DNA of 64,000 nt from Candidatus Poribacteria bacterium (lineage in GTDB: Bacteria; Poribacteria; WGA-4E; PCPOR2b): contig JAJDUM010000117.1 in assembly GCA_022826645.1 (NCBI GenBank), forward strand, positions 585-64,584, given 5' to 3'. Positions 1,784-38,309 of the stretch are shown in pieces; position 1 is the first letter of the stretch; every line of letters starts with the position of its first letter. The position numbers and the translations under genes are program-made. The notes below the pieces were generated by a model that ran no database searches, had not been told where the DNA came from, and saw only the letters and a list, made by a program, of their open reading frames with translations.

Positions 1784-2197
1784 TCAAAAGGTTGCGGCTT
1801 TTTCGAAGAAGTCAATTTCGACCACATCTACGTTCGCTCGTCGGGCATTGTCAGCGACCCGCTGAATAACCATCTCGCGAACAAACGGGATAGGGATACG
1901 TTTGACGCGGTGGACAACTTCCTCTGTGCAGCGGATTGGGGTATTCCCCAAGAATGGGCCTTCTTCCGACTTTGCCTCAGAGGGGTGATCGCATGTCTCC
2001 GGCACAAGCTGCTGCAATCGCATTGAGACGTAATCAGTTACCCAACCTTTGAGCGCTTCTCCTTTCTCCTCATTAACAGCAGTTGGCTGGGGTCTGTCGT
2101 CCAACTTCTGACTAATACCAACCAACAAATCTTCCAAGCGATTCAACCGATCTTCAACCGCAGATAACCGTTCTTCAACTCTGTTTTCGCTGTTCAT
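1784..2197 (-). CDS. Coiled-coil plus PCP_red (BchB/ChlB C-terminal-like) domain protein
   Basis: N-terminal heptads (VEERLSAVEDRLNRLEDLL); C-terminal TEEVVHRVKRIPIPFVREMVIQRVADNARRAN matches the W/CTxEAxxRLxRVPxFVR pattern. Confidence 0.7.
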   Translation of the reverse strand: MNSENRVEERLSAVEDRLNRLEDLLVGISQKLDDRPQPTAVNEEKGEALKGWVTDYVSMRLQQLVPETCDHPSEAKSEEGPFLGNTPIRCTEEVVHRVKRIPIPFVREMVIQRVADNARRANVDVVEIDFFEKAATF

Positions 2198-2318
2198 TAT
2201 TTTTTCTCCTCAACTGTGCAAACATCATGCGTGAAACGCGAAACGTGGTTTAATTTTGAATCCCTGAGTAGATAAAGACTAACACAAACGCACTGAAGGT
2301 ATATCCATCAGCTTTATT

Positions 2319-3620
2319 TTAGCGCCGAGGTCTGAAGGACGGAATTCCTGTCTTATCAAACCGTTTTTTGACAGCTTTCATGATTTCCGGGGTAATTTCA
2401 GAGTAGCCGTGTTCGCGAGCATATTTCTCGACACTTTTGGTGACCATCCCCCGCGCGAAGGAGGGTACCCGGCCTAATCTTTGCTGCGCAGCCTCTGTCC
2501 ATTGTAACTCGTAATCGGTTTCAGCTGCGAACGGGGTAGTCTTCTCAAACTTAATGTTTGTCTCTCCGGCTTGCCCTGGTTGATAATCGCAGGAGGGATC
2601 TTCAGCAAGATAGTTATCAGTGGCGGCATAGGCACGCGCGCGACAGCCGCCGCAGACGTCTCGAAATTCGCAAACCCCACACTTGCCTTCCAGTAATTTT
2701 CGATCTCGCAACTCTTGAAAGACCTTGGACTGATTCCACAGCGTTGCAAAACTGTCCGTCTTTAGATTGCCAACACTGACCGGCATATACGGACACGGCG
2801 TCAGATCGCCTTCAGGAGTGATACGGCAGTAGTAGATACCACAGGGGCACGTGCCGCTCGGATACGCTTGTAGGAAAGGCGAGTCTGATTGTTGTTCATA
2901 AATAACTCGTTTGTAGTGTGGTGCACATTTTGCCGCTACAAGCATTTTACCGCGATATTTCGCCTGTAACTCAAAGAGCGTCGAAAGCATTGTTTCATAT
3001 TGAGCGGGGGTGATGTCCATCACTGTTTTTCCCCTGCCAGTTCTCACAAGGAAATAGAGATTGAAGACCTTGGCACCAAGTTCATAGGCAAAATCAACGA
3101 TTTGTGGGATCTCGTCGTAATTCCAACGGGTCACAGAGGTCTGCACAAGGAAATCGAGGTTTGCGCGCTTCAGTGCTTCGACGCCGTTCATGGTGCCTTC
3201 CCAAGCCCCTTCGATTCCTCGGAACTTGTCGTGATTGACTGGATCTACCGCATCCAAACTAATACCGGCTCCAGCGACACCGTGATCACTCATTCTCTGA
3301 ACCGTTTCGTCGTTCAGCAGGACACCGTTCGTACCCATCACTACTAAGAATCCGGTTCGAGCCGCGTACTCTGAGATTTTCAGAATGTCAGGACGCAGCA
3401 ACGGTTCCCCACCTGTGAGAATCAGGAGGATGTTGGGATTAATTTCGGCAATCTCATCAATCACGCGGAAACACTGGTTTTGGGTCAACTCTGTATCTCG
3501 ATAATATCCGCTCGGAAATTCGTTGGTATCCACAAACCCAGCGGGGAGATAGCAGTGTGTACATTTGAGATTGCATAGCCGTGTGATATTCCATGAAACG
3601 GCTTGGACTTTCGTTTCCAT
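2319..3620 (-). CDS. Radical SAM/SPASM protein (NirJ/AhbD-like) with C-terminal PCP_red domain
   Basis: CNLKCTHC, TGGEPL, KCAPHY, SPASM cysteines CGVCEFRDVCGGCRARA...C; tail WTEAAQQRLGRVPSFARGM. Confidence 0.88.
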   Translation of the reverse strand: METKVQAVSWNITRLCNLKCTHCYLPAGFVDTNEFPSGYYRDTELTQNQCFRVIDEIAEINPNILLILTGGEPLLRPDILKISEYAARTGFLVVMGTNGVLLNDETVQRMSDHGVAGAGISLDAVDPVNHDKFRGIEGAWEGTMNGVEALKRANLDFLVQTSVTRWNYDEIPQIVDFAYELGAKVFNLYFLVRTGRGKTVMDITPAQYETMLSTLFELQAKYRGKMLVAAKCAPHYKRVIYEQQSDSPFLQAYPSGTCPCGIYYCRITPEGDLTPCPYMPVSVGNLKTDSFATLWNQSKVFQELRDRKLLEGKCGVCEFRDVCGGCRARAYAATDNYLAEDPSCDYQPGQAGETNIKFEKTTPFAAETDYELQWTEAAQQRLGRVPSFARGMVTKSVEKYAREHGYSEITPEIMKAVKKRFDKTGIPSFRPRR

Positions 3621-3655
3621 CTATCTGCTTCCTTAATAATGCTTTCCTCAACCGA

Positions 3656-4147
3656 TCAATCCACTCTCAAAATCAAAGACAGTACAAAGACAACAAGCCC
3701 GGCAAGTATCGTAAAAATTCCGAATAGGTCTACTTTCCTTCGCAATTTGGCAACCACTGAAGCATCGAAAGTCGGGTTTGCCACCGCCGACTCTAATCTT
3801 CGATTGAAAACTGCGATATGCAGGCTATGAAACAGCGTCATCAATCCAACAAAGACAAGTTTCGCGATAAAAAGGACAAAATAGCCCTGAGAAAAACCCA
3901 TCTGCGTGTTCAGTCCGACGATGAACAGGTTCATCGCACCGGTAATCAGGAGAACATGGATTGTGAAACGGATAACATGCCGTAGACGATTCCGGATCGC
4001 GGTGGTATGTTGGACACTTTCAAGGATTTGAAAATGCTTTCTCAGAATCGGAGTTGCGACGCTGAGAGAAAAAAAGATTCCACCAAACCAAACGATTGCT
4101 GCGATAAGGTGTATCCAACGGATAAAAAGTTCGACAATTGGACGCAT
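3656..4147 (-). CDS. Four-TM membrane protein, CopD/DUF4149-like
   Basis: RWIHLIAAIVWFGG signature and four hydrophobic helices with His residues. Confidence 0.65.
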   Translation of the reverse strand: MRPIVELFIRWIHLIAAIVWFGGIFFSLSVATPILRKHFQILESVQHTTAIRNRLRHVIRFTIHVLLITGAMNLFIVGLNTQMGFSQGYFVLFIAKLVFVGLMTLFHSLHIAVFNRRLESAVANPTFDASVVAKLRRKVDLFGIFTILAGLVVFVLSLILRVD

Positions 4148-4158
4148 ATTGGATACTA

Positions 4159-4677
4159 CTAGAGAATGTATTGTTCACGCCTTTGGAGGATTCCGTATTC
4201 TTCACATTTCTGGATTATCAACTCTGAATTTTTACAGTTCTCCAAAATGTCATAATTTTCTTTCAAGGCACTTATCTTGTTAATGGAAATACTTTTCTGA
4301 CCCAGAGGTTCAATAAGAACAGTCGGAACAAAATAAAGTTCAAATGAGTTGTCGCCTATGGGATGAACACCAATTACAACATCTGCGGTTTCTGGCGATT
4401 GTATATACTCTTTAACTCCTGATTTATACTCCCTATCCACTCCCCCTCTGGAACCTCCAGTAAAGCTAATACTGCTAGTCGCAGTTTTGACTTGAGCTCG
4501 AATAATGTCATCATTTCCATCTTCATCTTTTTGGACAATGATTATATCATAGGTTGATAGAGGCAAATCAACTAACGAAACATTCTGATATCTTTTCATC
4601 AAAAGCCCAACAACAATGTGCTCATGTGCAAAACCATCTATCGATGCTTGTCGGCCTCTCTCTTCAGCTATCTTCAT
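4159..4677 (-). CDS. Putative type II restriction endonuclease, PD-(D/E)xK fold
   Basis: E...YDIII...RAQVKT nuclease motif; lies immediately downstream of a DNA methyltransferase; AT-rich. Confidence 0.7.
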   Translation of the reverse strand: MKIAEERGRQASIDGFAHEHIVVGLLMKRYQNVSLVDLPLSTYDIIIVQKDEDGNDDIIRAQVKTATSSISFTGGSRGGVDREYKSGVKEYIQSPETADVVIGVHPIGDNSFELYFVPTVLIEPLGQKSISINKISALKENYDILENCKNSELIIQKCEEYGILQRREQYIL

Positions 4678-4689
4678 ATTTCCCCCATC

Positions 4690-6120
4690 TCATTTTCTGA
4701 GTACCAGAATCCAGTCTGTGTTGATTCGTTCCTCTCTGGGGACTTTAATGAAATGTTTGATAATCTCCGACCCAAAATAGTTTTCAATATTAAATCCGAT
4801 ATTTTCTGCCAACGTCATCAGATACTTCCAACTTTCAAATAGCTGGCCACGCATACGATTATTGCCCACGACAATAATGTATCGTCCTCCATCGCGCAAC
4901 ACCGAATAAACTTGGGACAGATTTTTCTGCATATCGTCCAAGTATTTGAAAGCGATATACGCCCGTCTTGGATCCTGTTCAAAAATCTTCTCAATGACAC
5001 TATCCGCCTCCTCCACACCAATCTGATGTCGGGTTCGATAATCCTGCGATGAAACACTTTCCGTTCCAACATGCTTTTTCTTTAAGGGTGTTAAGGTGCC
5101 ATCGGCAAACCCCAACCAATAGAGCTCCAATTGATGGGTTCTCGGATAATCGACTGCATTCGCATACGGCGGTGAAGTCAGAACCAAGTCAAAAGTTCCT
5201 GCATCGTACCTGATATTCCGTGCGTCCATGTTTGCTGGAAAGCTTACGGTTATATCTTGTGGTACGTTTTGAGAAAATTCTATCATCTTGGGCACTTTAA
5301 CTAGCACCGTTTCTACAAATTTTCTCAGGGCATCGGAGGGATTGACCTGTTTTTTTAGTACCTTGCGAATTACAGTCCTCGTGCAATTATCATCAGCATT
5401 GGATATGGAACGGATAATCGAGGAGAAACAGACCTTGAAGAAGTCTTTAACGCGCTCACTCTTATCAAGGGACTCAATAGCCTTTTTTAGGTAAGCCAAT
5501 TCTAAAGTTATTTCTCTGTTGAACCAATTATCCCTGTAAGGGAAGGACGGTATATCCGATTCTGATACTAGAGCGGGTTGATAGGCTTCCACGGCATTAA
5601 AGAGAGATTCTTGAGCTTCAACGAGTTCTTTTTTAGCTAAAGGCGTTACCTTGACTGTTGATATGAAGCGAGAAAATGGATCGACATCAATACCAACAGA
5701 GTTCCGTTTTAGTAAAAGTGCCTCAACGTTTGTGGTCCCGCTCCCCGAAAACGGGTCAAGAATCATATCGTTTTCTTGAGAATACCGTTTGATTAACCAT
5801 CGCGGTAATTCGGGGAAAAACTTGGCGGGATACTTATGCAATCCGTGGGTAAAATGGCTCTGGTCATAGCTAATGAACAGAAATCTATCGCCATCATTAA
5901 CAGGTAACTCCACAGGAATGTCCCCATCGACCTGCACAATTTCCTCGCCGAATGGATTCACAATTTTCTTAACATTGTCCACCGGTTGCTGTGCATGATG
6001 TTCCGGTCGTTTCCGCCTGCCGTTTCTTTTCGCAACCTTCGCTGATATGGCTGACAGTGAAATGGGGTACCATGGTAGATCTATTGGGGCTTGTGTGAGA
6101 CGAATATCTTCCGTTTCCAC
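4690..6120 (-). CDS. DNA methyltransferase, probably N4-cytosine, alpha-type motif order
   Basis: HKYPAKF, motif I DPFSGSGTT, then motif IV TSPPY. Confidence 0.88.
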   Translation of the reverse strand: METEDIRLTQAPIDLPWYPISLSAISAKVAKRNGRRKRPEHHAQQPVDNVKKIVNPFGEEIVQVDGDIPVELPVNDGDRFLFISYDQSHFTHGLHKYPAKFFPELPRWLIKRYSQENDMILDPFSGSGTTNVEALLLKRNSVGIDVDPFSRFISTVKVTPLAKKELVEAQESLFNAVEAYQPALVSESDIPSFPYRDNWFNREITLELAYLKKAIESLDKSERVKDFFKVCFSSIIRSISNADDNCTRTVIRKVLKKQVNPSDALRKFVETVLVKVPKMIEFSQNVPQDITVSFPANMDARNIRYDAGTFDLVLTSPPYANAVDYPRTHQLELYWLGFADGTLTPLKKKHVGTESVSSQDYRTRHQIGVEEADSVIEKIFEQDPRRAYIAFKYLDDMQKNLSQVYSVLRDGGRYIIVVGNNRMRGQLFESWKYLMTLAENIGFNIENYFGSEIIKHFIKVPREERINTDWILVLRK

Positions 6121-6132
6121 TGTGATAAACTC

Positions 6133-6636
6133 CTACATTCCAAAGTTACCCCGTGCAGTATCCATAACTTCGGCAGTGATTTCGGTGTGTCCATTCTCAC
6201 GGGCGAACTCTTCGATGCCAGTCTTCGCCATTGAGCGGACGAAACTAGGTACGCGCTCCAAACGCGCTAAGGCTTCTGGTGTCCATACCGGTCCGGTCGC
6301 CTCCACCGGCTCCTGAAATGCTTCCGCTACAACCGATGTGAACGGGCATTTCCCGCCGCCTTCGGTGGATACCGTCGGTGCTTCGGCGGTCAGATTGTCC
6401 GGGTTCTGCTGATTCAGAAAGGAACGTACCATCTGCATCGGCTGTGCCGCTTCGCTCTTGCCACCGAGTTGAACATCAAGGGATTTTAGCATTTGGGTCT
6501 CCCACGGGTTCATGTGCATTGCGAACTCGGCAAAGCAATCTGGGCACTCGAAAATCGCCGTCAAGGAGCCTTGATCCGGCGTCGCTGTTTCCTTAAATTC
6601 CATCGCTGTGTTGCATTCAAGGCATAAGAATTTCAT
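6133..6636 (-). CDS. Zinc-ribbon plus PCP_red domain protein
   Basis: CLEC...CPDC, a GKCPF motif, and C-terminal WTPEALARLERVPSFVRSM. Confidence 0.8.
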   Translation of the reverse strand: MKFLCLECNTAMEFKETATPDQGSLTAIFECPDCFAEFAMHMNPWETQMLKSLDVQLGGKSEAAQPMQMVRSFLNQQNPDNLTAEAPTVSTEGGGKCPFTSVVAEAFQEPVEATGPVWTPEALARLERVPSFVRSMAKTGIEEFARENGHTEITAEVMDTARGNFGM

Positions 6637-6717
6637 TGATTGACTCCATTTGAAATTGAATCGAATTTTGGCTTATATGATAAAGAAATCTTGTCATGCT
6701 GACAGGGAAATTCACGT

Positions 6718-7203
6718 CTAACGATTCTCATTGACAATCTGATTTAGTTGTTCTTGAAGGATCTGAAGTTGCGGTGTTCCGTTAAGAATACGTATCGCGT
6801 CCATACAACTATCTTTGACAAAAGGGACTTCCTTGGGGCCATTAAGGCATTGATGCAGTGCTGCTCGTGACTCGACATATTTGATGTGGGATAGTGCACT
6901 AGCAGAGAGCATCCGGATGTCGTCGTTTGGATCGTTTATCAGCAGTTCGATTAGTTTTTCTCCAATATCTTGCTTTTCAGGCCAATGACCACCCAACAAA
7001 TGAACCGCATTCAGACGGAATATTTCGTTTGGGGAGTCCAACAGTTCTATCAAGAACTTCCGAAGTGGCTCATAGCGTTTTTCAGCTAATGGATGGGCTA
7101 TCCGATAGAATTTATGCTCTGACACCTGTCCATTTTGACATAGATTCTTTAACTTAGCAAGGTTTTCTGTCAAATCACACAAGATGTATTCCCTCACCGA
7201 CAT
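6718..7203 (-). CDS. HEAT/PBS-lyase repeat protein
   Basis: LLDSPNEIFRLNAVHLLG and LINDPNDDIRMLSASALS repeats. Confidence 0.7.
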   Translation of the reverse strand: MSVREYILCDLTENLAKLKNLCQNGQVSEHKFYRIAHPLAEKRYEPLRKFLIELLDSPNEIFRLNAVHLLGGHWPEKQDIGEKLIELLINDPNDDIRMLSASALSHIKYVESRAALHQCLNGPKEVPFVKDSCMDAIRILNGTPQLQILQEQLNQIVNENR

Positions 7204-7285
7204 TCCATCGAATTGTTCCCATCAACCTCTCCACAATGGACACAACCGGGTGTGTAAAATCCCTAACACTACCCTGTATCGTGCA

Positions 7286-8179
7286 TCATACTTCATGATT
7301 GAAGAACGCTTCAATTTTCTCCGCAAGTGCTATTAATGTCCTACCTGCGGGAGTATCTCGGTGTTGATCAACAAACACGCTACCTTCATCCGACGCAATA
7401 GAGATCCGAGGATCGAACGGTATTTTGCCGAGCAGAGAAACGTCAAATTGACGTGCCATCTCCTCCGTGTGTCCCGATGGAAACAGATCTTCGGTTTTGC
7501 CACAATCGGCGCACACATAGGCGGCCATATTTTCGACGACCCCGATCACCGGTGCGTTGAGTAGTTTTTTTGCCATCGTCAGCGATTTTTTGACGACAAG
7601 CTGGGACACTCCAGAAGGGATTGTAACAACAACTGTGCCGCCAAGATTAGGCAGGAGATCGACAAGATTTGGCAATCGGTCAGTACCGGGGGGAAGATCG
7701 ATTAACAAATAATCAAGAGATCCCCATTCAGTATCGGAGAGAAATTCACGGAGGGCACTCATTTCCATGGTCCCCCGCCAAGTGAAAGCATCCTTCTGCG
7801 TTTGGGCTTCCCAGAGGACCGGCGTTTCGTCGTCCTTGAGGAAGAGATCCATTGACATCACCTTGACCCCAAGTGGACTGAGGGCAGGTTTCACACCATC
7901 GTCACCATAATCAATTCGCTGCCCTCTCACCCCCATCATTTTAGCGATCGAGGGCCCATTGATGTCAGCGTCAATCACGCCAACACTGTGTCCGCGCAAC
8001 CCAAGTGCCGAAGCGAGGTTTGCCGTGACCGAACTCTTGCCGACGCCGCCTTTTCCACTCATGATGGCAACAATGTGGCGGACCGACGCCAATCGTTGTT
8101 GTAAGCGATTGACTTGCTGCGTTACTTGTCCAATGATGTTAGAACCGCCATCGGCGGGGAGGTCTTTGTAGGTTTTCAT
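7286..8179 (-). CDS. mrp: Mrp/NBP35 (ApbC) Fe-S cluster carrier ATPase
   Basis: SGKGGVGKS, DADINGPS, DLPPGTD, ENMAAYVCADCG; start moved to ATG 8179. Confidence 0.9.
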   Translation of the reverse strand: MKTYKDLPADGGSNIIGQVTQQVNRLQQRLASVRHIVAIMSGKGGVGKSSVTANLASALGLRGHSVGVIDADINGPSIAKMMGVRGQRIDYGDDGVKPALSPLGVKVMSMDLFLKDDETPVLWEAQTQKDAFTWRGTMEMSALREFLSDTEWGSLDYLLIDLPPGTDRLPNLVDLLPNLGGTVVVTIPSGVSQLVVKKSLTMAKKLLNAPVIGVVENMAAYVCADCGKTEDLFPSGHTEEMARQFDVSLLGKIPFDPRISIASDEGSVFVDQHRDTPAGRTLIALAEKIEAFFNHEV

Positions 8180-8260
8180 AAGAGGCAATATCTTAACCGT
8201 TATGCGTGAACTTGAGATGTCTGACTTCGGGAACAACCACAACGAGGCGACGAGCGAGGG

Positions 8261-8293
8261 CATGGCAGAAAAAAATCAGCGTTTTCTGCCATG
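8261..8293. terminator. Intergenic hairpin
   Basis: CATGGCAGAAAA...TTTTCTGCCATG inverted repeat between the MetE-like gene and mrp. Confidence 0.45.
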
Positions 8294-8322
8294 CAGGAAG
8301 TGTGTTTGAACGTTTTCATGGG

Positions 8323-9492
8323 TTATGACGCTTCTGAACGCAATATCTCGGCGGCATGATGGATGACCTGTAATTTTTGCGCCGCGATTTTTGTTGTGTT
8401 TACGGGGCGGTCTGCGAATGTTCCAAAGCCACAATCGGGGTTTAGATAGATCTGCTCCGGTTTACGGTGATTTAATAGTGCACGAACCTTGTCTAATACG
8501 AAATCAACCGATTCGACTTCGGTGGTACGCGGGTCAGTGACGCCGAGTCCGATCTCTTTGTCGGGGGGAAGGTCGCCGAGGGCATCAATGCTTCCCGCCC
8601 GCTCTGTCGCGTATTCAAGCACAAACTGATCGACGTCCATCCGGCTAAAATATGGAATCAGAAAATCGTAAGAACCGCGAAGCAGGACATCCTCCTGTTG
8701 GCTCCAGTTGCCGCGGCAGACATGCAGGGCGGTTTTCATTTCACCGTCAATCCCTTCAACCACGCGATTCAGCAGTTCAACCGCGAAGTTGAGTTCTTCT
8801 TCAGGACTGCTCTTTTCTGAAAGTGCAGCACACATAAACGTGTGAGTTTCGTGGGGACCGGTAAAAGCGACTTCGGTCAACACCGGTTCATCGAACTGAA
8901 CAAATTGACACCCCGCGTCCCGTAGCGCATTTAATTCTTCGCGGAGGACCGCAACGACATCGTCCCCCAGAGCTTCTTTATCGGGATAAAAGTCGTAGGA
9001 GAGACGCTTCACCCACATCGACCGGGTCAGGAGATACGGTCCAGGCAAGGTGGCTTTGATCGGTTTGGTTGTGTGCGACTTGAGAAACAGGTAGTCATTC
9101 AACACGAGTGGGAATCTGCGCCCCAGTTGTCCATCGACGACCGGATTTTTCAGGGCGAACGCCGGGACATCCAAAGCGTTGAGCAATTGTTCAAATGCGG
9201 CTTTATCCTCGACATAGTCAAGCATTTCCGCAAGTGTCATCAACCGGATACCGTCAATACACTGGGTGATAAAAGAGTAGAAATTGTCCCGCCGTTGTTC
9301 GCCGTCGCTGACGATATCGACCCCGACGCTTTCCTGCAACTTGAGGGCTTCGAGCACCGCCTCATCCGCAACCGCGTTAAATTCAGCATCCGTGATTCCA
9401 CTTTTCTGTCTGTTACGCAATGCTCTCGAAACCGCCCGCGAGCGGGGTAAACTCCCGACGACAGTTACGGGAAATTGGGGTAGATTTTTCAT
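8323..9492 (-). CDS. Cobalamin-independent methionine synthase II family protein (single-barrel MetE-like)
   Basis: VGSLPR, SDGEQRR, QFDEP, Zn ligands LHVCRGN, LEY and PDCGF; 389 aa, lacking the N-terminal barrel. Confidence 0.88.
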   Translation of the reverse strand: MKNLPQFPVTVVGSLPRSRAVSRALRNRQKSGITDAEFNAVADEAVLEALKLQESVGVDIVSDGEQRRDNFYSFITQCIDGIRLMTLAEMLDYVEDKAAFEQLLNALDVPAFALKNPVVDGQLGRRFPLVLNDYLFLKSHTTKPIKATLPGPYLLTRSMWVKRLSYDFYPDKEALGDDVVAVLREELNALRDAGCQFVQFDEPVLTEVAFTGPHETHTFMCAALSEKSSPEEELNFAVELLNRVVEGIDGEMKTALHVCRGNWSQQEDVLLRGSYDFLIPYFSRMDVDQFVLEYATERAGSIDALGDLPPDKEIGLGVTDPRTTEVESVDFVLDKVRALLNHRKPEQIYLNPDCGFGTFADRPVNTTKIAAQKLQVIHHAAEILRSEAS

Positions 9493-9509
9493 GGCTCAAA
9501 CCTCCTGTA

Positions 9510-9722
9510 CTATTGTCGATGCCGGTCAATGATTTTCCCAAAAGTCCTCAAGGCTTCGTTGACCGATTTGGCATTGGGGAATATTTTGGCGACATCATCA
9601 TCAAGTTTAATGATATTTGTACCTTCGCGGTATCTCTGGGCATATTTGCCCCGAACCCCTTTACGGAAATCGTACTCATCAAGTAGTTCTGGATCGTGTC
9701 GATCAGCCATAGCTTTCTTCAT
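9510..9722 (-). CDS. BrnA-like antitoxin, orphan
   Basis: EYDFRKGVRGKYA...LDDDVAKIFPNAKSVNEALR is a typical small antitoxin pattern; no toxin gene adjacent. Confidence 0.6.
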   Translation of the reverse strand: MKKAMADRHDPELLDEYDFRKGVRGKYAQRYREGTNIIKLDDDVAKIFPNAKSVNEALRTFGKIIDRHRQ

Positions 9723-9738
9723 TTATAAAATGACGCCC

Positions 9739-10479
9739 TTAGATCACGCGCAGATCGACGTTGATGTCAACGGTACGGGTGAGTGTATTGGTCACGGGCG
9801 AGGCAGCGAGCGTTTCTTGCCAGAGGGTTTCTAACACCTCTTCGTCGGCGTCCGCCGCAACATAAATTGTCCCCTTAACCTCTTTGAAACCGCTGTGCCC
9901 GCCCTGCTCTGTGCCGAGAAAGACGAAGATATTGTCGACCTGTCCGCTCAACGAAATCTCCAGTTCATCAATCTCAACTTTCCGCTGAGATGCGCGAATC
10001 TGAAAGCCCATCGCCAAACACGCGCCGAGCGCACCGAGGACGTACTCGACCGCGCTTGGGGCCTCATCCCTCACATCGAAACTAGCGGGCTGACCTACCG
10101 ACCATGAATGATTCCGACAGAAAACCTTCGTCTGCATGCCACCATCCCAGTGAATGCGCGTTCCCCAACGGTAATTCCGCGCTTTTTCGTAGTCGGCATC
10201 CGTTCTCTGCTCGGCTTCGCCTCGCCGAACGAAATACTTATTGTGGTCGGTGGCAGGTCGCCACCCCATGTAAGGATTCTGGGTCATTCGACACCACGCG
10301 GGTAGGTCTTCCTTGACGCTGATTTCCGTGCTGCGAATCTCCAAAACCTCACCGTTTGGCACCCCCTCCATCGATTTGCGAATCAGCAGAAGTAGACCTG
10401 AGCCGCAGTCAAGGTTTCCACCTTTACATACATGGAGCGTCTGAAGATCATCTGACGCTTGTAAATCTTCATCTCGCAT
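9739..10479 (-). CDS. TusA-like plus OsmC-like fusion protein
   Basis: N-terminal GGNLDCGSGLL...GEVLEI...DLPAWC; C-terminal PSAVEYVLGALGACL...ASPVTNTL; start moved to ATG 10479 with GGGGA RBS. Confidence 0.8.
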   Translation of the reverse strand: MRDEDLQASDDLQTLHVCKGGNLDCGSGLLLLIRKSMEGVPNGEVLEIRSTEISVKEDLPAWCRMTQNPYMGWRPATDHNKYFVRRGEAEQRTDADYEKARNYRWGTRIHWDGGMQTKVFCRNHSWSVGQPASFDVRDEAPSAVEYVLGALGACLAMGFQIRASQRKVEIDELEISLSGQVDNIFVFLGTEQGGHSGFKEVKGTIYVAADADEEVLETLWQETLAASPVTNTLTRTVDINVDLRVI

Positions 10480-10603
10480 AACGATCCCCGATAAACGGGA
10501 GACATGAATCAGCCCGAATTTTGTATGATGAAATGACTCATGCGTCGATGCTGCCGAGGCGGATGCCTCTCCCACAGTCGGAGAGACTGCCTTATTCCCG
10601 GTA

Positions 10604-10963
10604 TTAATAGGTAATACAAGAACCGCCGGTCGTCAGAAATTCAACCGCCTTTGCCCCACCGACAATTGTGGCACTATCGACAAGGTTATTTTCATCAAGG
10701 TTGCGTTTTTTGAAGCAAGGGGAGCAGACCCAAATTGTTCCACCCACTTCGGCGAAATCCGCCATGAGTTGTTGAAGGGGTGCGAAGCCTTCTTCGTGAA
10801 TATCATCGGAGTAGCCGTTTTGCGACAGGTGCACACCCTCTGTGCTGAGGAAAACAACTGTTTCAACGCCGGATGCGACTGAGGCGTTGGCAACAACAAC
10901 ACCGACGGTCGCTTTGTCGGTGTTGTCCTTCGCGTGAGTGATACTAATCATCAGTTTAGCCAT
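10604..10963 (-). CDS. DsrE/DsrF-like family protein
   Basis: VVFLSTEGVHL, GGTIWVCSPCFKKR; 119 aa. Confidence 0.85.
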   Translation of the reverse strand: MAKLMISITHAKDNTDKATVGVVVANASVASGVETVVFLSTEGVHLSQNGYSDDIHEEGFAPLQQLMADFAEVGGTIWVCSPCFKKRNLDENNLVDSATIVGGAKAVEFLTTGGSCITY

Positions 10964-11226
10964 TATGGATTCTCTCCTTTTTTGATGTAAAAATAGGCTT
11001 TGTCTTCACCGCAGGAGTCTGCGAGAAGTTCGTTGCCTTTCATGTTGCACCATGCGGCGATATCCACAGGTGCCGCTGGGTCAAGCGCACGAATTTGTGC
11101 TATCTGTCCCGGTTCCAGGGATCGCATGGATTTCAGGAGCGCGATGATCAGGTCACCGCAACCGAGATCCCCTAAATCGACTTTCAAATCTGGAATGATG
11201 TTTGGTGAATCAATCGTTTCTTTCAT
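10963..11226 (-). CDS. TusA/SirA family sulfur carrier
   Basis: DLGDLGCGDL, LEPGQIAQIRALDPAAPVDIAAWC, YFYIKK; stop overlaps the dsrE start. Confidence 0.85.
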   Translation of the reverse strand: MKETIDSPNIIPDLKVDLGDLGCGDLIIALLKSMRSLEPGQIAQIRALDPAAPVDIAAWCNMKGNELLADSCGEDKAYFYIKKGENP

Positions 11227-11331
11227 AAAACGACCTTTTCGTCTGGTTACGCATTACATTGCACATGCTTGGCGCAATACTTCTGTTGCTTGAACTATTA
11301 CTCCGAACTTTAGGACAGACTGTTTTGTATC

Positions 11332-11520
11332 GCAAACTGTTAGTTTGTGCTTTGACATACTCCCAAGCATAAATGCTTGGGATTCTTACGATAGACTGAA
11401 CAGTAGCAGTTGCCCTGTGCTATCTTCCTGATTCACTGATTCGTGCCTTTCGTTAGGACAGGGTCTTACAGAATCTCCACAGGCGTTTATACTCTCCGTG
11501 TGTCCCGCGGCGAGTTGTTT
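11332..11520 (-). ncRNA. Predicted TnpB reRNA/omegaRNA (scaffold over the tnpB 3' end and right end, plus flanking guide); limits approximate
   Basis: Established architecture of TnpB elements; right-end hairpin visible at 11361-11382. Confidence 0.5.
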
Positions 11521-12788
11521 TAGGTTCATTGCGGCGTTAAGGTCTCTGTCTCGCGTGTGCCCACAATCACGGCAATGGTATGTTCTATCTGACAGGGACA
11601 AGTCCGAATCAATTACACCGCAGTTGCTACAGGTCTTGCTCGACGGGTAGAAGGTATCCGCTTCCACAATCTTGATACCAAGCCGGTCTGCCTTAGACTT
11701 CAAGAGCATTAGGAAGTTTGATAATGAAGCGTCCGATAGGGCTTTGGCGAGCCGGTGATTCTTGACCATGCCTGCGACGTTGAGCGATTCGATTCCGATA
11801 CGGCTTGCGTTGTTGACAATGGCTGTGGTTGCCTTCTGTTGTGCGTCTTGACGAATGCAAGCAATTCGGTAGTGCAACTTGGCAATTTTGGTTTTGATCT
11901 TATACCGGTTCCGGCTACCTTTGATGCGTTTGCTCAAACGCCGTTGCAATCGTTTTAACTTTCGCTCGTATCGTGCAAGTGCCTTCGGATTATCATAATA
12001 GACACCTTCGGAAGTAATTGCCATGTGCTTGATCCCTACATCAACGCCAACGACAGGCTTATGTCGATTGTCGGGTATGGGATCATCAACAGAAGTGTCT
12101 ACAAGGATGGATGCGAACCATCGGTGTCCGTGTTTAGATATGACGACTTTACAGATAGTACCGAGGTAGCGAAGGGGTTGAAACATACGGACCCAACCGA
12201 TTTTGGGAAGTTTAATCCGTTGACCTTCAACAGGAATGGTGCCTCTACCACTATCTGCCTGATAACTTTGACCATGAGAACGGTTCTTGAATTTTGGGAA
12301 ACGGTTTTGACCCGACCTCCACCGGGTAATTGCATCTTTGAAGTTGTTGTAGATTACGTTCTTTGAGGCATTCTGCGATAAGGCGTCGCACCATTGGTAA
12401 GTATCACGCTTGATAGAGTTGAACCGCCTCAGCAAATCGCAGTGACTACGCCAATCGTTATTGGCCAGCCCGTCTTTGAAATCCGCAAGTGCGTGATTGT
12501 ACGCAACACGGCTATACCCACAGTGTTGGGCAAATTGTGTGGATTGAACGTTGTTGGGATCTAAAGCAATTTTATGAGTTTTTAGCATTGGGAGGTCTTT
12601 CCATCTTTCGTTTCCCATTGTAGTGGGTGTGAGGGACACCGCCAAGCGACGGTGCTACAATTCCCTCACCGAAAGACAAACCAACTATACGATATTTTGA
12701 TATAGAAAATCAAGAAAAAAACTGCTAAAGCAGCACTCAAGCCCAAACCTAAAGGATTGGGCTTGAGTGCTAAAGCAAACCGCTTTGG
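11352..12788 (-). mobile_element. Non-autonomous IS200/IS605-family element (TnpB only)
   Basis: Right end GAAT-hairpin(CCCAAGCAT tt ATGCTTGGG)-agtatg-TCAA; left-end hairpin CAAG-CCCAATCCTTTAGGTTTGGG preceded by TGAC; no tnpA. The left boundary is inferred. Confidence 0.75.
11386..12588 (-). CDS. tnpB: RNA-guided endonuclease TnpB
   Basis: N-terminal HTH (KTHKIALDPN), RuvC I GVDVG, RuvC II IESL, Zn finger CSNC/CRDC, RuvC III DRDLNAA; start ATG 12588. Confidence 0.95.
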   Translation of the reverse strand: MLKTHKIALDPNNVQSTQFAQHCGYSRVAYNHALADFKDGLANNDWRSHCDLLRRFNSIKRDTYQWCDALSQNASKNVIYNNFKDAITRWRSGQNRFPKFKNRSHGQSYQADSGRGTIPVEGQRIKLPKIGWVRMFQPLRYLGTICKVVISKHGHRWFASILVDTSVDDPIPDNRHKPVVGVDVGIKHMAITSEGVYYDNPKALARYERKLKRLQRRLSKRIKGSRNRYKIKTKIAKLHYRIACIRQDAQQKATTAIVNNASRIGIESLNVAGMVKNHRLAKALSDASLSNFLMLLKSKADRLGIKIVEADTFYPSSKTCSNCGVIDSDLSLSDRTYHCRDCGHTRDRDLNAAMNLKQLAAGHTESINACGDSVRPCPNERHESVNQEDSTGQLLLFSLS

Positions 12789-12873
12789 GTCAGAGCCCCA
12801 TCTCATTATTTATCCGTGGATCGATAACGATTTGCTTAACGATTCTTTTGCCTCTCCTAACTCCCAACCAGAT

Positions 12874-14805
12874 TTACTCTTCCTCCGTTTTCGCCGTGTC
12901 ATTTTTCTTCTGATCCTGCTGGTAATAAGTACCAAGCACCTCATTGTCCAGACTCCGTCCCTCCTCAATCACCTGCGCTGCGAAATCGAGGTTGATTGTC
13001 GTGAGGTCGGCTTCCTGCGCTCGCTGTTCGACACGGGATTGCGTGATGTTACGCATAAATCCAGCGGGTACGAGGTCCAATCGTGCCCGTGCATCCGGTG
13101 TCCATTCAAGCGGACTCTCAAATGTTTCTTCTTGGGAGGTATCATCGGACTCGCGGGACTGCGCGACAGCTTTCAGTTCAGGCGCATCTTCACGGACAGC
13201 GGACGCCTGATCCATACTCTCGTTGATAATCTGCATCGCAAACTCGTTGGTGATTGTACCGATTTTCTGGACACGCGCCGATTTCTCGATTCGCGCTTTG
13301 ACGTTGCGCCGCATATATCCGCGCGGGACATTCCGCAACGCTTTTTTGGCTTGATCAGACCACTGGAGGCGCACACCGTCAAAGGTCTGTTCCTCACTGA
13401 CGCCGCCCTCCTGATCTGCGACCCTTTGGAGTGAATCTTTATCAACCATCTGGAATTTGTCACCGTCTACGCCGCAAACGGGGCATTTTATGGGCTGCTG
13501 GTCTTTGGCAGCATAGCCGCAATCCCCGCAGATGTAGGTCTTAATCGCACTGGAGTCCAAAACCGTTTGCGTTGCAATCTCCTTGGCAACCTTGGTCATC
13601 CGTTCCGCTGAACGTCCCGGCATAAAGGTCTCCATTGCCTGCTCAATAACGCTCTCGGTAATCACAGAGTGTCCACGTTCAATGGCAAAACGGTGGACAG
13701 CGGTGCGTGCAATGCCCTGCACCTGTGGAGGTGCTTTCGACATACGATCCAAGGCTTCCTGTGTCCAGACCACCGTCTCCTCGGCTGTGACATCAATTGT
13801 TGGAACGTATCGTTGGCTCGACAGGAACACATTACACGGGGCGAGTCGTAGCAGGTTTTCGGTGTTGCTGCCGATATCCATATCGGGGTCGCTGTGGACG
13901 CCGATTCTGCCTAACACTAGCATCCACGGTTCGGTTTTTCGGGCATATTGCAAGATCTTCTCAAACGCTTTGCCATCTAGCAAGGTGATTTTTAGATCGT
14001 AGTTGTGGTCTTCTTTGGCGATGGTTCGGGCAATCTCCAGATGAGATTGATAGATTTTGGCAAGTCCGGTGTCGATGACCTCTTCGTGCAGCTGTTCTTG
14101 CTCTTTAAACCGGAAGGTTTTGGATGCACGCTCAGTTAGGACACTGACAACGGAATTAAACACCACATAGTGAAGATAGGGGTCGTATACGCCGACCGCC
14201 TCGACTTGTCTATCAAATTCCTTACCAAGCCGGATGGCTGTTTTCAGTCCGGCGAAGGATTCGGGACTACCATCAATTCCCACGAGAATATGTCCCTTCT
14301 GTTCGTGCATCGCTTCTATATTTCGGACGACAAGGGTATCGGTCTCAATACGCCGCACAACCCGCTCAACAACACCGCCGAGTAGACTGTCCTTAACCGC
14401 CCCCATACCGAGGGCACCCATAATCACAAGATCGTAATCGCTTGCCTGAATGTCCTCCGCCAACTTGATGAAGTGTTTTCCCTCAGGCATTCTGGCTTCA
14501 AAGGGAATGTTGTTCTCAGCGCATTTGTTCTTCATGACCTCCAAGTACGAATCGGAGATTAATTGAAGTCCCATTGTAATCAATGTATCATGGATGCGCC
14601 GCTGCTTCTCAAGCTCAGCTTCATCTTGGTATTCTTCGGGGAGCGTATACTCCATCTGCTTGAACCGAACATCGTGCATTTTCGCAGCATAAACGTGAGA
14701 ACCGACGAGTTGCGATTGGAATTTTTTGGCGAACTCTACAGCAAAATTGACGCTTGCATCGGAATGGTCCGAGTTGTCAACAGGTACATAGATTTTCTTA
14801 AACAT
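12874..14805 (-). CDS. Tandem universal stress protein domains + three PCP_red domains + rubredoxin-like domain
   Basis: Two USP domains (KKIYVPVDNS...LVIMGALG; ILVGIDGS...GSNTENLLR), CGDCGY...CPVCG, and three W(T/S)xxAxxxL/MxxxP repeats. Confidence 0.85.
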   Translation of the reverse strand: MFKKIYVPVDNSDHSDASVNFAVEFAKKFQSQLVGSHVYAAKMHDVRFKQMEYTLPEEYQDEAELEKQRRIHDTLITMGLQLISDSYLEVMKNKCAENNIPFEARMPEGKHFIKLAEDIQASDYDLVIMGALGMGAVKDSLLGGVVERVVRRIETDTLVVRNIEAMHEQKGHILVGIDGSPESFAGLKTAIRLGKEFDRQVEAVGVYDPYLHYVVFNSVVSVLTERASKTFRFKEQEQLHEEVIDTGLAKIYQSHLEIARTIAKEDHNYDLKITLLDGKAFEKILQYARKTEPWMLVLGRIGVHSDPDMDIGSNTENLLRLAPCNVFLSSQRYVPTIDVTAEETVVWTQEALDRMSKAPPQVQGIARTAVHRFAIERGHSVITESVIEQAMETFMPGRSAERMTKVAKEIATQTVLDSSAIKTYICGDCGYAAKDQQPIKCPVCGVDGDKFQMVDKDSLQRVADQEGGVSEEQTFDGVRLQWSDQAKKALRNVPRGYMRRNVKARIEKSARVQKIGTITNEFAMQIINESMDQASAVREDAPELKAVAQSRESDDTSQEETFESPLEWTPDARARLDLVPAGFMRNITQSRVEQRAQEADLTTINLDFAAQVIEEGRSLDNEVLGTYYQQDQKKNDTAKTEEE

Positions 14806-19686: not shown

Positions 19687-20352
19687 TTACTGTTCAAGCA
19701 ACGTTCTTATATCCTTACGCAATCGCTGCAGCGAGCCCTCACTTCGGCTCTCATAGTAACCTCGCACCTGCTGGTCCCGATCCACAAGCACAAATCGTGT
19801 GCTATGAAGAATCTCACTCCCACGATGACCGGCCGCCAAGTTAAACCCATCTTGAGCCAGTTGGTAGATAGCGTCTCTCTGTCCTGTTAGGAAAGACCAA
19901 CGATCGCCATCCGCGCCATAATGATCTGCATAACGAAGAAGGGCTTCAGGAGTATCCCGTTCCGGATCTACAGAAAAGGAAACGAAATGGACATCCTCCG
20001 CAGCGAATTCGTTTTGGAGGTTCGCCATTTGGATAGTCATTGGCGGACAAATTGTCGCACAAGTGGTAAAGATGAAATCCGCGACCCAAATTTTGTCGTG
20101 GAGATCGGACAGCGCAAAGGGTAAACCACTCTGATCGGTCAAGGAAAAGTCCGGTAGTTGTTGTTGAGCCGCGAGTTCCGACAACGAACGTGTCGACTCC
20201 AAGGTTGCGCCGGACTTTTGATGAACGAATGACCAGAGATTAGCACCCAAGATACCAACAATCACAAGGGCTAACACGCCCCAGAGAAGTCCACGGAGTA
20301 CCCGGTGGGTGGACGTAGCAGCCTGTTCTGGAGATTTAACTTTGGTTTCCAT
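19687..20352 (-). CDS. sco: SCO1/SenC copper chaperone
   Basis: FTTCATICP, SVDPERDTPE, distal His (ILHS), N-terminal TM. Confidence 0.92.
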   Translation of the reverse strand: METKVKSPEQAATSTHRVLRGLLWGVLALVIVGILGANLWSFVHQKSGATLESTRSLSELAAQQQLPDFSLTDQSGLPFALSDLHDKIWVADFIFTTCATICPPMTIQMANLQNEFAAEDVHFVSFSVDPERDTPEALLRYADHYGADGDRWSFLTGQRDAIYQLAQDGFNLAAGHRGSEILHSTRFVLVDRDQQVRGYYESRSEGSLQRLRKDIRTLLEQ

Positions 20353-20420
20353 AGATATAAAGCGTAAAACCCAGGACGCGGAGCAAACAATTTCTTCACG
20401 TTTCACGCATCACGTTTTAC

Positions 20421-20750
20421 TTAGTGAGATGTATCAACAACCTGAGATTCCGCTTTAGCTCCTTCATGGCGAGCCCCAGCCATTAGATCCGGAAGCAGCA
20501 TAAACACGAGAAAAACACAGATAATAAACGGCGTCAGCGCAATCATCATCAAGGTCTTCTGCTCAAATTTTAGGTGCATGAAATAGAGCGCGACATAAAG
20601 TGCCTTAGAACATGCCATGCCGATCAGCAAGAGTGCGATCACAATCTTGGGAAAAGGCATGTAAACTACGGCAACTTCGGCGATGGTGAGTATGATGAGA
20701 ATCACAAATATTCTCATATATTTCGGATGTTCTTTATGAGCGTGTTCCAT
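20421..20750 (-). CDS. Cytochrome c oxidase subunit IV family
   Basis: KALYVALYFMHLKFE motif; three TMs. Confidence 0.85.
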   Translation of the reverse strand: MEHAHKEHPKYMRIFVILIILTIAEVAVVYMPFPKIVIALLLIGMACSKALYVALYFMHLKFEQKTLMMIALTPFIICVFLVFMLLPDLMAGARHEGAKAESQVVDTSH

Positions 20751-20770
20751 CTTGATTCTCCATGTGGTGA

Positions 20771-21397
20771 TTACAGTAGATAGACAAAGGTAAAAACCAT
20801 GATCCAGACAAGGTCAACAAAGTGCCAATATAGCCCCAAGATCTCGACCTTGTGATTATTCTCTGCTGTGTATGTTCCCCGCAGCCCCTGAATCAGGATA
20901 ACAATGAGGTAAATGACACCACCGGTGACATGTGCACCGTGGAAACCTGTAATTGTGTAGAAGGTAGGACCAAATAGTGTGGAACCTGACATCCCGTGGG
21001 GAAGCGTGGTGAAGGTTAGACCGTGCGTAATCAGGTGAGTCCACTCATACGCTTGCAGCCCCAAGAAGATTAGACCGCCCAGAATAGTCAAACCGAGGAA
21101 AGTACACATCCTCGATTGGTTGCCGTTCTGGATGGCTTCGAGGGCTTTGACCATCGTAACACTACTACAAATCAGCAAAAAGGTCATAGCCGCAGTGAGG
21201 TTAATTCCGAGTACTTCGGATGGGGGTGCCCATTCCGCTGCGCCAGCGCGTATAGCACCGTAAGCAGCGAGCAGTGCACCAAAGGACATCGCGTCGCTAA
21301 TAAGAAAGAGCCACATCCCCAACTTGCCCAGACTATCGGGGGTGAGGGACGGTTCGTAAACATCGGCAGAATGATCGAGTGTCGTGGTTTGTTCCAA
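20771..21397 (-). CDS. ctaE: Cytochrome c oxidase subunit III
   Basis: TGFHGAHV and LYWHFVDLVW. Confidence 0.9.
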   Translation of the reverse strand: MEQTTTLDHSADVYEPSLTPDSLGKLGMWLFLISDAMSFGALLAAYGAIRAGAAEWAPPSEVLGINLTAAMTFLLICSSVTMVKALEAIQNGNQSRMCTFLGLTILGGLIFLGLQAYEWTHLITHGLTFTTLPHGMSGSTLFGPTFYTITGFHGAHVTGGVIYLIVILIQGLRGTYTAENNHKVEILGLYWHFVDLVWIMVFTFVYLL

Positions 21398-21400
21398 TTT

Positions 21401-21655
21401 TCACACTCCTTTCACATTTGAAGGTGGTTTACGATTATCGGTCCGATGTGTGCGGTAGTATACGAGAAACACACCACCACCAATTAGACCGGAAACAATA
21501 TAGGGCATCGCCATAAGGAATAAAATGCTCCATTTGAAGCCCTGAACAATTGGGTCATCTATCGTTTTACACGAGGGACAGGCTTCCACAACTGCTGGTG
21601 CCAGCAGTGCAAGGACCAGAATCCCTACTATGAATGAAAAATATCGACAAATCAT
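21401..21655 (-). CDS. Small CxxC membrane protein of the oxidase cluster
   Basis: Signal-like N-terminus, ACPSCK, SILFLMAMPY TM segment. Confidence 0.7.
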   Translation of the reverse strand: MICRYFSFIVGILVLALLAPAVVEACPSCKTIDDPIVQGFKWSILFLMAMPYIVSGLIGGGVFLVYYRTHRTDNRKPPSNVKGV

Positions 21656-21975
21656 AAGAAAATCTCCTTACTCACGAAATGAAGATAATAATTTGTGTGA
21701 ATTCGCAATTTATGATTTTTTTTGGGTTTTCCGTGAAGATAATGCTTAAAGTTGACAGAAGCATCATCGGGCACTTTCTCCCACGTTGTCAAGGGAATTT
21801 ACTCTCCAATTTCAGCAACAACTTTCCAAATCGGTTTTTGTGGCTGACATTGCATGACAGCTTCTTCATTTATCGGGTCAAGATTTTTTTATGGTGAATC
21901 CTATAATTACTTATACACCTTCAATACACAGCCAACCCCTAAATCCCCCTTATCAGGGGGACTTTTGAGACTTCA

Positions 21976-22827: not shown

Positions 22828-23037
22828 AGTGAATACCCCCCATTCAAACTATGGTGGATTCCAAAAATAAATAGACACTTTCGCCACCCGGTAGGTGCGG
22901 GTGCCTAATCGCACCGAATAGGCGTAGTTGGAAACAGTGCCTACCAAACGGGACAACAGTAGTTTCGTTTTTCGCCCCCCGGTTTGGCGTGTCTCATTAA
23001 TTCTAAGATCCACTATAAGTAGACAAGCACTGGTAAT

Positions 23038-23736: not shown

Positions 23737-23817
23737 TGCATTCACCTCCATACTAAAATAAATTGTTACTGTAAATAGGAATCGTAATCGAAACGATTAG
23801 GGAGTTAAGCACCGAAC

Positions 23818-24678: not shown

Positions 24679-24694
24679 GGTGAACACCCGTCAT

Positions 24695-25300: not shown

Positions 25301-25374
25301 TGGAATAGAAGATAAAACATGAAAAAAAGGAGAAAAGCCTCTATTGCACAACAGTCAAGGTTAGAAAACCTCGA

Positions 25375-25515
25375 TTACAATCCATTATTCTTGACAAGCG
25401 CAAGAATCGTTGCAAGAATAAATAGGACGACAAATACCGCGAATAAGAACCAACCGATACGTCGGTTTTGACTCTGTTTTTCTTGGTTATTCTTAATTTG
25501 GTGATCTTGTTCCAT
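25375..25515 (-). CDS. 46-aa single-TM protein, absent from the ORF track
   Basis: MEQDHQIKNNQEKQSQNRRIGWFLFAVFVVLFILATILALVKNNGL*; its ATG overlaps the ctaB stop (TAATG). Confidence 0.65.
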   Translation of the reverse strand: MEQDHQIKNNQEKQSQNRRIGWFLFAVFVVLFILATILALVKNNGL

Positions 25516-38307: not shown

Positions 38308-38309
38308 TC

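Follow-up and report, generated by a model that had tools for sequence, protein, structure and literature searches.

In dark protochlorophyllide reductase (DPOR), the small helical domain PCP_red forms the C-terminal appendage of BchB/ChlB and accompanies an Fe-S enzyme that acts on a tetrapyrrole, together with a P-loop ATPase of the SIMIBI class. Tetrapyrrole-acting enzymes are also known among radical S-adenosylmethionine (SAM) proteins, namely the haem b synthase AhbD and NirJ/NirJ2 of haem d1 synthesis, and Mrp proteins are established as carriers of Fe-S clusters. In the Nif and Hyd maturation systems (NifB/NifH/NifEN/NifX and HydE/G/F), radical SAM enzymes, P-loop NTPases and carriers are combined and co-inherited with the enzyme that they serve. 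Here we describe a set of six genes carrying six PCP_red domains, which lies in a 64,000-nucleotide stretch of the Candidatus Poribacteria contig JAJDUM010000117.1 (the whole stretch analysed, hereafter the window, whose coordinates are used throughout). The set is gained, lost and decays together with a respiratory module containing a CydA-like, here termed bd-like, protein, and we lean towards the view that it is an accessory system, for maturation or assembly, dedicated to that module.

Like DPOR, the set joins PCP_red to a SIMIBI-class ATPase and to an Fe-S enzyme that plausibly acts on a tetrapyrrole. Unlike DPOR, it has no nitrogenase-like core, and the domain is multiplied and distributed over USP, Zn-ribbon, coiled-coil and radical SAM proteins. 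It also differs from the Nif and Hyd systems, in that the carriers are not homologous and the client would be a CydA-like membrane complex. Pfam and NCBIfam scans place the six PCP_red domains in four minus-strand genes. From 14805 to 1784, with the inserts left out, the six genes of the set are:

12874..14805, minus strand: USP protein with the domain order USP-USP-PCP_red-rubredoxin-like-PCP_red-PCP_red, 643 aa (Pfam); PCP_red copies at 13636-13767, 13240-13362 and 12982-13104, minus strand (genome six-frame matches)
7286..8179, minus strand: Mrp/NBP35 P-loop ATPase, 297 aa from the conserved start (PF10609, 261.5 bits)
6133..6636, minus strand: Zn-ribbon protein with a Cys4 ribbon, a conserved CPF motif and PCP_red, 167 aa (PCP_red at 6151-6285, 69.8 bits)
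3656..4147, minus strand: four-helix CopD/HemJ-like membrane protein, 163 aa (Pfam matches below the cut-offs)
2319..3620, minus strand: radical SAM/SPASM enzyme of the AhbD/NirJ clade with a C-terminal PCP_red, 433 aa (PCP_red at 2367-2501; Pfam/NCBIfam)
1784..2197, minus strand: coiled-coil protein with a Cys/His motif and a divergent PCP_red, 137 aa (PCP_red at 1796-1924; 21.3 bits plus hhalign)

Upstream on the same strand lies a series of cytochrome b6/petD-like genes, a 1041-aa multihaem cytochrome, the bd-like module and an aa3-type oxidase, of which the latter two comprise:

36553..43405, minus strand: bd-like module of a 249-aa protein, the CydA-like protein, two cytochromes c and a cytochrome c-NxrC/EbdC-like haem-b fusion (Pfam, synteny)
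40636-42453, minus strand: CydA-like, or bd-like, protein (Cyt_bd_oxida_I, 68.6 bits)
39106-40608 and 38310-39089, minus strand: the two cytochromes c of the module
36553-38307, minus strand: cytochrome c fused to an NxrC/EbdC-like haem-b domain (EB_dh 62.2 bits, DMSO_red_II_gam 79.1 bits)
19687..31579, minus strand: aa3-type oxidase and assembly genes, namely COX2, COX1, CtaA, CtaB, two COX3 genes, COX4 and SCO1 (Pfam)

The CydA-like protein covers positions 3-237 of the 418 in the profile of bd subunit I, has no NCBIfam match and does not qualify as a full-length CydA (PF01654) accompanied by CydB; this partial match is the reason for the name “bd-like”. Collinear bd-like and cox genes on one strand, with the set directly after SCO1, are found in four of four genomes from three families, and in the genus of the window FumC and SdhAB have been inserted between SCO1 and the set. 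In most genomes the set forms a transcription unit of its own, some 20 kb away from the bd-like module. The module has the same four gene kinds as the cluster of alt-NxrC, two cytochromes c and a bd-like protein that, according to the accessible part of one account, is conserved in Nitrospira, Nitrospina and anammox bacteria (PMC6606698). That part of the account counts bd-like complexes among those respiratory genes that Nitrospira transcribes most highly, gives their cofactors and role as unknown, and mentions no radical SAM, Mrp or PCP_red partner (PMC6606698).

Phyletic comparison of 176 Poribacteria genomes revealed PCP_red in 152 and the bd-like protein in 149, with both in 149, PCP_red alone in three, the bd-like protein alone in none and neither in 24. 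In a closer set of 41 relatives the two features occur in the same 35 genomes. COX1 is present in 40 of these 41, including those without the set, so that the aa3 oxidase does not track it. Family f4 has neither feature (0/7) and keeps its own, more distant aa3 oxidase with SCO1. In G020, a genome of family f1, the five-gene bd-like module is gone, with the flanking cytochromes, aa3 genes, cytochrome b6 and SdhAB intact (L189/L190, G020:C10:22000-61999). There the set survives as remnants, comprising residues 1-44 of the USP protein, part of Mrp interrupted in frame by two TGA codons and a radical SAM fragment of residues 1-229 with a frameshift, and no Zn-ribbon, CopD-like or coiled-coil gene was found in that genome. 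G050, from a distant family with 64% guanine plus cytosine, holds both features, and no other genome outside the order has one or the other; its congeners G051 and G052 hold neither. Its operon (L192, G050:C25:1-20000) contains, in one run, two NxrC-like cytochromes, the bd-like gene, two cytochromes c and, in last place, a 480-aa radical SAM/SPASM protein with PCP_red, and is preceded by NxrB-like and NarJ-like genes, which recalls an Nxr-type setting. Poribacteria are heterotrophic sponge symbionts and are not known to oxidise nitrite. At least three separate events lie behind the phyletic pattern. Moreover, a soil contig from another lineage (L175) has Mrp, the Zn-ribbon gene, a cytochrome c and a cytochrome c with EB_dh, in this order. 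Altogether, the 176-genome pattern, the co-decay in G020 and the operon of G050 make it likely that the set is tied to the bd-like module. This preference for the bd-like oxidase over the other respiratory enzymes is the best-supported claim of the initial annotation.

The six genes are very probably one functional unit. A scan of genome contigs returned close relatives only (77 of 80 labelled Poribacteria and three “uncultured bacterium”). We compared 80 Poribacteria loci centred on the Zn-ribbon gene. In 66 of them the full set is found at most 10 kb from that gene and in the same order, as had been proposed from the window with its inserts removed, and the complete sets span 6.7 to 15.6 kb (median 9.1 kb). 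Order and strand are constant wherever the six genes occur, and Mrp adjoins the Zn-ribbon gene in 80/80 loci. In eight of eight loci from three families of the order, the USP gene is followed on one strand by one variable gene (tandem-USP or beta-propeller) and then by Mrp, Zn-ribbon, CopD-like, radical SAM and coiled-coil genes. The intergenic gaps of the compact locus L013 are just 9-122 bp, and a promoter and terminator scan of the compact locus gave counts not above those of shuffled sequences (6 vs 7.8 and 7 vs 7.7).

As a side observation, a divergent gene resembling chlorite dismutase/HemQ lies 3' of the coiled-coil gene in two loci (L184:397-1158 and L188:320-1075), matched at 45-65 bits over its C-terminal half only. 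It is followed by genes for an ABC-2 permease, a GldG-like ABC auxiliary protein and a DUF4340 protein.

The initial annotation had recognised six helical repeats as the C-terminal appendage of BchB/ChlB, and both parts of that claim are borne out by profile and structure comparison. Against the Pfam gathering cut-off of PF08369 (32.5 bits), PCP_red scores 58.7 bits in the radical SAM enzyme (residues 374-418), 69.8 bits in the Zn-ribbon protein (residues 118-162) and 97.9 bits over three stretches of the USP protein. The copy of the coiled-coil protein scores 21.3 bits, under the cut-off, and was confirmed by matching the profile of its eight orthologs to that of the PCP_red part of the Zn-ribbon family (hhalign 93%, E 3.5e-7, 51 columns). 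A six-frame search of the whole 6.04-Mb genome returned exactly six matches, all inside 12 kb, of which five pass the cut-off (72.3, 62.9, 44.1, 37.2 and 35.2 bits) and the sixth reaches 22.9 bits. The frames that carry them are 141-652 aa long and none is BchB-like; as these are the sole PCP_red matches in the genome, it has no BchB. The copies are only 13-41% identical pairwise and are thus old paralogs, not recent repeats.

By sequence, PCP_red matches the C-terminus of BchB/ChlB with E values of 1e-10 to 3e-8. The match to the BchB models is confined to their last 56-66 positions, and the nitrogenase-like core with its NB-cluster ligands and the BchN/BchL partners that define the DPOR proteins are lacking. 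The structure model of the Zn-ribbon protein (pLDDT 83.9) superposes on 2KRU with a TM score of 0.79 and a root mean square deviation (RMSD) of 1.1 Å, and likewise on 2L09 and on chain D of 2YNM (RMSD 1.0 Å), so that sequence and fold agree in equating the small helical domain of the set with that of these structures. PCP_red maps to residues 446-522 of 3AEK chain B, downstream of the substrate-covering helix. The idea that PCP_red is itself the helix covering protochlorophyllide, prompted by an earlier study (PMC4071322), was ruled out, since cryo-electron microscopy places that helix at BchB 398-420 (PMC12022308).

The Zn-ribbon family comprises 1221 representatives at E<=1e-3, and four N-terminal cysteines are invariant among 36 of its members. 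Among 20 longer PCP_red proteins, out of 150 family members listed, the domain is fused to USP in 11, to radical SAM/SPASM in one, to a rubredoxin-like knuckle alone in two and to nothing else in five. In the remaining one it is joined to the C-terminal part of Mrp followed by the Zn-ribbon protein. USP, radical SAM/SPASM, rubredoxin-like and Zn-ribbon modules are the only fusion partners in the other 19 of the 20. This fusion pattern fits a shared adaptor domain. The last case, P0223 (275 aa), is an apparent in-frame fusion of the Mrp C-terminal part, with its CxxC motif, to a full Zn-ribbon protein, and as a single case it may be an artefact of sequencing or gene calling.

The members of the set belong to known superfamilies, but no member passes a curated equivalog cut-off. 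The Mrp protein falls in the Mrp/NBP35 P-loop class (PF10609), in agreement with the initial annotation, and an alignment of 12 sequences shows no variation in its deviant Walker A motif (GKGGVGKS) or in C-x-x-C. Ortholog alignment puts its start at 8179, and the listed reading frame start at 8263 is probably 28 codons too early. Like the Mrp, NBP35 and ApbC carriers, including MrpORP of Desulfovibrio, it combines the P-loop domain (261 bits) with CxxC. Unlike MrpORP, it lacks the C-terminal domain (positions 2-248 of 365 are matched) and has its own N-terminus. It scores 261.6 bits against MrpORP (NF041136, cut-off 450) and 188.8 bits against ApbC (NF008669, cut-off 348), below both cut-offs. 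The conserved 30-residue N-terminal extension is kept even in soil relatives that are about 50% identical overall and is absent from the housekeeping paralog. Genomes without the set carry only that paralog, at 36-45% identity, and the Mrp of the set is a second, dedicated copy beside it.

The radical SAM enzyme belongs to the radical SAM/SPASM proteins (Radical_SAM 86.3 bits, SPASM 36.6 bits). Like AhbD and NirJ/NirJ2, it has the full catalytic core, with the CX3CX2C motif at Cys16, Cys20 and Cys23 of the translation and the SPASM cysteines present, and over residues 8-348 its best families are AhbD (323 bits) and NirJ2 (303.3 bits). Unlike these enzymes, it bears an extra C-terminal PCP_red, is genomically tied to the bd-like module and has no AhbA/B/C or Nir partners in the genome, where it is the only AhbD-like protein. 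Ferrochelatase and a ChdC-like gene are present in the genome and an AhbC-like gene is absent, so the enzyme is not part of a sirohaem route. Outside the phylum, clusters of such radical SAM/SPASM-PCP_red proteins are commonest, by coarse taxon labels, in Methylomirabilota, Nitrospinota, Pseudomonadota and Acidobacteriota. Forms with three PCP_red domains, about 50% identical, are labelled Ca. Brocadiaceae (“nirJ 3”) and Brocadiales.

The USP protein has two Usp domains (PF00582, 123.9 bits) and a rubredoxin-like stretch (RUBY_RBDX, 27.4 bits), and its orthologs are 77-95% identical in 8/8 loci. The nucleotide-binding motif of the Usp family is G-x2-G-x9-G-S/T; on visual inspection it is complete in the second domain and ends in G-G in the first. 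The CopD-like protein matches CopD (PF05425) at 27.5 bits (cut-off 32.1), UPF0093/HemJ (PF03653) at 22.9 bits (cut-off 34.2) and DUF2269 at 18.6 bits, all under the cut-offs. Its alignment has a single invariant histidine in helix 1, and its model has four long helices. A sequence search of solved structures gave no match to it, and Foldseek with the model returned designed or generic helix bundles only (E > 0.1). A 151-aa frame after the G050 radical SAM gene has no similarity to the CopD-like protein and looks like an arginine-rich chance frame. In the coiled-coil protein, C69, H71, C90 and H96 are invariant in eight orthologs, and a cysteine takes the place of the tryptophan that opens the other PCP_red copies; the invariant cysteines and histidines are possibly a metal site.

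From the families of its members, the set would work as a cofactor-maturation system of a radical SAM enzyme and a P-loop carrier. The radical SAM enzyme would modify a haem, or another tetrapyrrole, bound for the bd-like module in a reaction independent of oxygen. That its substrate is a tetrapyrrole may be as readily right as wrong: AhbD and NirJ2 as best families and the HemQ/ChdC-like gene after the coiled-coil gene in some genomes speak for it, but the enzyme misses the curated cut-offs of both AhbD and NirJ2. A SPASM enzyme requires up to three Fe-S clusters; Mrp may load or repair these, and perhaps the Cys4 sites as well. PCP_red would be the common adaptor by which the soluble parts are kept together, the USP protein with its several copies would be a scaffold that senses nucleotides, and the membrane protein might pass the product, or a metal, to the membrane complex.

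The initial annotation had further pictured PCP_red as a docking tag for Mrp. Structure prediction of an Mrp dimer with the Zn-ribbon protein gave a score of 0.51, against 0.02 for the best of three controls, with at least 69% of contacts agreeing between runs and a partner pLDDT of at least 64. In calibration, the mark was reached by 58/80 solved complexes and 2/110 mismatched pairs, and the prediction was classed as weak support. Together with the 80/80 adjacency of the two genes, the overlap of their reading frames in soil contigs and the one fusion, it points faintly to docking of PCP_red on Mrp, a contact that we suggest only tentatively.

No description of the set was found in the searchable literature, subscription journals and supplementary files being outside our reach. 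Within that scope, the combination of these parts, the multiplication of PCP_red outside photosynthesis and the tie to a bd-like module are undescribed. For bd-like modules, the set gives a concrete handle on the cofactor problem, its radical SAM enzyme and its Mrp being open to expression and assay, and it may be used as a genomic marker of functional modules. It also provides a first functional context for hundreds of non-photosynthetic PCP_red proteins and hints at a possible job of the unexplained C-terminal domain of BchB/ChlB. In a far broader reading, which we consider doubtful, the bd-like/alt-NxrC complexes found in nitrite oxidisers, anammox bacteria and Methylomirabilota, among others, would owe their maturation to this set, as the machinery missing so far. 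The defining feature of these enzymes would then be a modified haem made by the radical SAM enzyme, or an unusual haem-metal site that it installs, and PCP_red would be an ancient adaptor for tetrapyrrole-processing Fe-S enzymes, later borrowed by DPOR.

Several observations weigh against an accessory system dedicated to the bd-like module. Firstly, 14 of the 80 loci are incomplete; six are cut by contig ends and the other eight have full flanks, so the set is truly split or interrupted there, mostly with the half of CopD-like, radical SAM and coiled-coil genes elsewhere (cf. G003 and G022). Secondly, in G050, which is 79% complete, no Zn-ribbon protein, USP protein or dedicated Mrp was found; with the radical SAM protein alone, the full set is not always needed. 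Thirdly, G132, G134 and G157 have PCP_red, and no bd-like gene was found in them even at E 1e-3; the completeness of these genomes is 84-91%, with 150-420 contigs each, no more than part of the set was recovered from two of them, and the absence may be an assembly loss. In addition, kin genomes are not independent, and the 149-to-0 pattern therefore rests on few events.

Comparison with distant relatives adds to these points. The expected clustering and co-conservation of the set stood within Poribacteria, and the clustering did not extend to soil contigs: in a metagenome scan with a distant Zn-ribbon protein, which covered 80 soil contigs (20 of them at least 8 kb), no radical SAM, USP, CopD-like or coiled-coil gene of the set lay beside the Zn-ribbon gene. 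Mrp adjoins it in only 4/80 and 76/80 have no partner gene next to it; the Zn-ribbon gene mostly stands apart from the other genes there, and clustering of the whole set is thus not general. Judged from the translations, its usual neighbours resemble a small membrane protein, an HU-like protein, a D-Ala-D-Ala carboxypeptidase and a HAD protein. As to the biochemistry, we infer it from families only: the radical SAM enzyme remains under the 500-bit equivalog cut-offs of AhbD (TIGR04545) and NirJ2 (TIGR04055), and accessible DPOR literature assigns no role to the PCP_red domain of that enzyme. Weak, too, is the complex prediction, since at scores of 0.60 or less the mark was reached by just 7/80 solved complexes and by both of the mismatched pairs that passed.

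Among the alternatives, general haem b synthesis survives best. The radical SAM enzyme would then be an oxygen-independent coproheme decarboxylase, analogous to AhbD and supported by the other genes, which backs up the peroxide-dependent ChdC/HemQ in sponge anoxia, and the tie to the bd-like module would reflect shared ecology. AhbD being the top family of the enzyme, and the genomic complement of ferrochelatase and ChdC-like without AhbC-like genes, agree with this. Moreover, a HemQ/ChdC-like gene directly follows the coiled-coil gene in G026 and G023 and lies within 10 kb in 14/80 loci, so a haem link stays plausible. However, the enzyme scores far below the AhbD cut-off, the set has decayed in G020, where nothing but the bd-like module was lost, and it is missing in the 24 of 176 genomes that still need haem for the aa3 oxidase. 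As the radical SAM gene of G050 also sits within the bd-like operon, we regard this explanation as unlikely.

The PCP_red proteins and Mrp might instead be working cytoplasmic parts of the bd-like complex, forming an Fe-S or rubredoxin-like electron path between membrane module and cytoplasm. Strict co-occurrence and co-loss with the module would be expected of such parts, and a metal-type site (Cys4, Cys/His or Fe-S) stands beside the domain in every PCP_red protein. We nevertheless find this improbable, because a radical SAM/SPASM enzyme and an Mrp carrier typify the making of cofactors, not electron transfer, and because the set mostly forms its own distant transcription unit. Similarly improbable is modification of a protein or peptide by the SPASM enzyme, for example a cross-link in a subunit of the bd-like module, with PCP_red as the recognition element or even the substrate. 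Most SPASM enzymes are indeed peptide or protein maturases, PqqE (77 bits) and SkfB (66 bits) are the nearest relatives with a solved structure, and the models of MftC, PqqE and GeoRSP are matched at 126-162 bits. Yet AhbD and NirJ2, the models of enzymes acting on tetrapyrroles, reach roughly double these scores. Furthermore, PCP_red folds into a domain whose structure is solved, it carries no modification in DPOR, and the cluster has no conserved small precursor gene. Service to the adjacent aa3-type cytochrome c oxidase, by delivery of copper or haem a, might be read from SCO1 immediately before the USP gene in 59/80 loci, the CopD-like member and the nearby CtaA and CtaB, but is highly improbable given COX1 in 40/41 relatives, the 77% identical COX1 kept with CtaA, CtaB, COX3 and COX4 in G020 beside mere stubs of the set, and family f4 with aa3 oxidase and SCO1 and without the set.

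Apart from the six genes of the set, the region between 1784 and 14805 holds three further segments, all on the minus strand:

4159..6120, minus strand: insert of an N6/N4 DNA methyltransferase (N6_N4_Mtase, 81 bits) and a 172-aa open reading frame; 7/80 related loci
6718..7203, minus strand: HEAT-repeat protein, an occasional accessory gene (HEAT_2, 63.4 bits); 4/80 related loci
8323..12645, minus strand: strain-specific insert of MetE-like, OsmC-TusA, DsrE, TusA and TnpB genes (Pfam); MetE in 3/80 and TnpB in 1/80 related loci

These counts, together with contigs of relatives, bear out the earlier view that the segments are real, strain-specific inserts. The insert joints were read from assembled contigs of relatives in 4 of 13 runs (RNA runs, shares 0.05-0.16). 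Those contigs are 90-99% alike, 48 of 52 pieces being under 95%, and one of 28.8 kb is possibly DNA in an RNA library; only the joints were used. The contigs join directly across the methyltransferase insert (4141->6078), and across the HEAT gene (6651->7344) 63 other letters stand between the two sides. The 4.7-kb segment from MetE to TnpB (8157/8182->12915) is replaced by 972/947 other letters. At this site relatives carry a tandem-USP gene of 283-293 aa (about 880 bp) or a beta-propeller gene; as the roughly 950-970 replacement letters fit the former, the segment took the place of the tandem-USP gene, which was not found in the window. The sulfur-trafficking trio within it (OsmC-TusA fusion, DsrE and TusA) appears to travel with the IS605-type TnpB (8323-12645, 4.3 kb).

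In the soil contigs, a high-GC (guanine-plus-cytosine) lineage (L138, L140, L154, L162 and L176) has a gene for a small three-helix membrane protein that precedes the Zn-ribbon gene and overlaps its start, and HU-like, carboxypeptidase-like and HAD-like genes after it, which makes up a conserved context of another kind. Within the cox cluster of the window, two genes resembling formylglycine-generating enzyme (FGE-sulfatase) and a 237-aa open reading frame lie between the two COX3 genes (21976-24687), with none at that place in four other genomes compared. A second methyltransferase insert, consisting of a D12 methyltransferase and a helix-turn-helix protein, lies inside the same cluster at 32223-33877.

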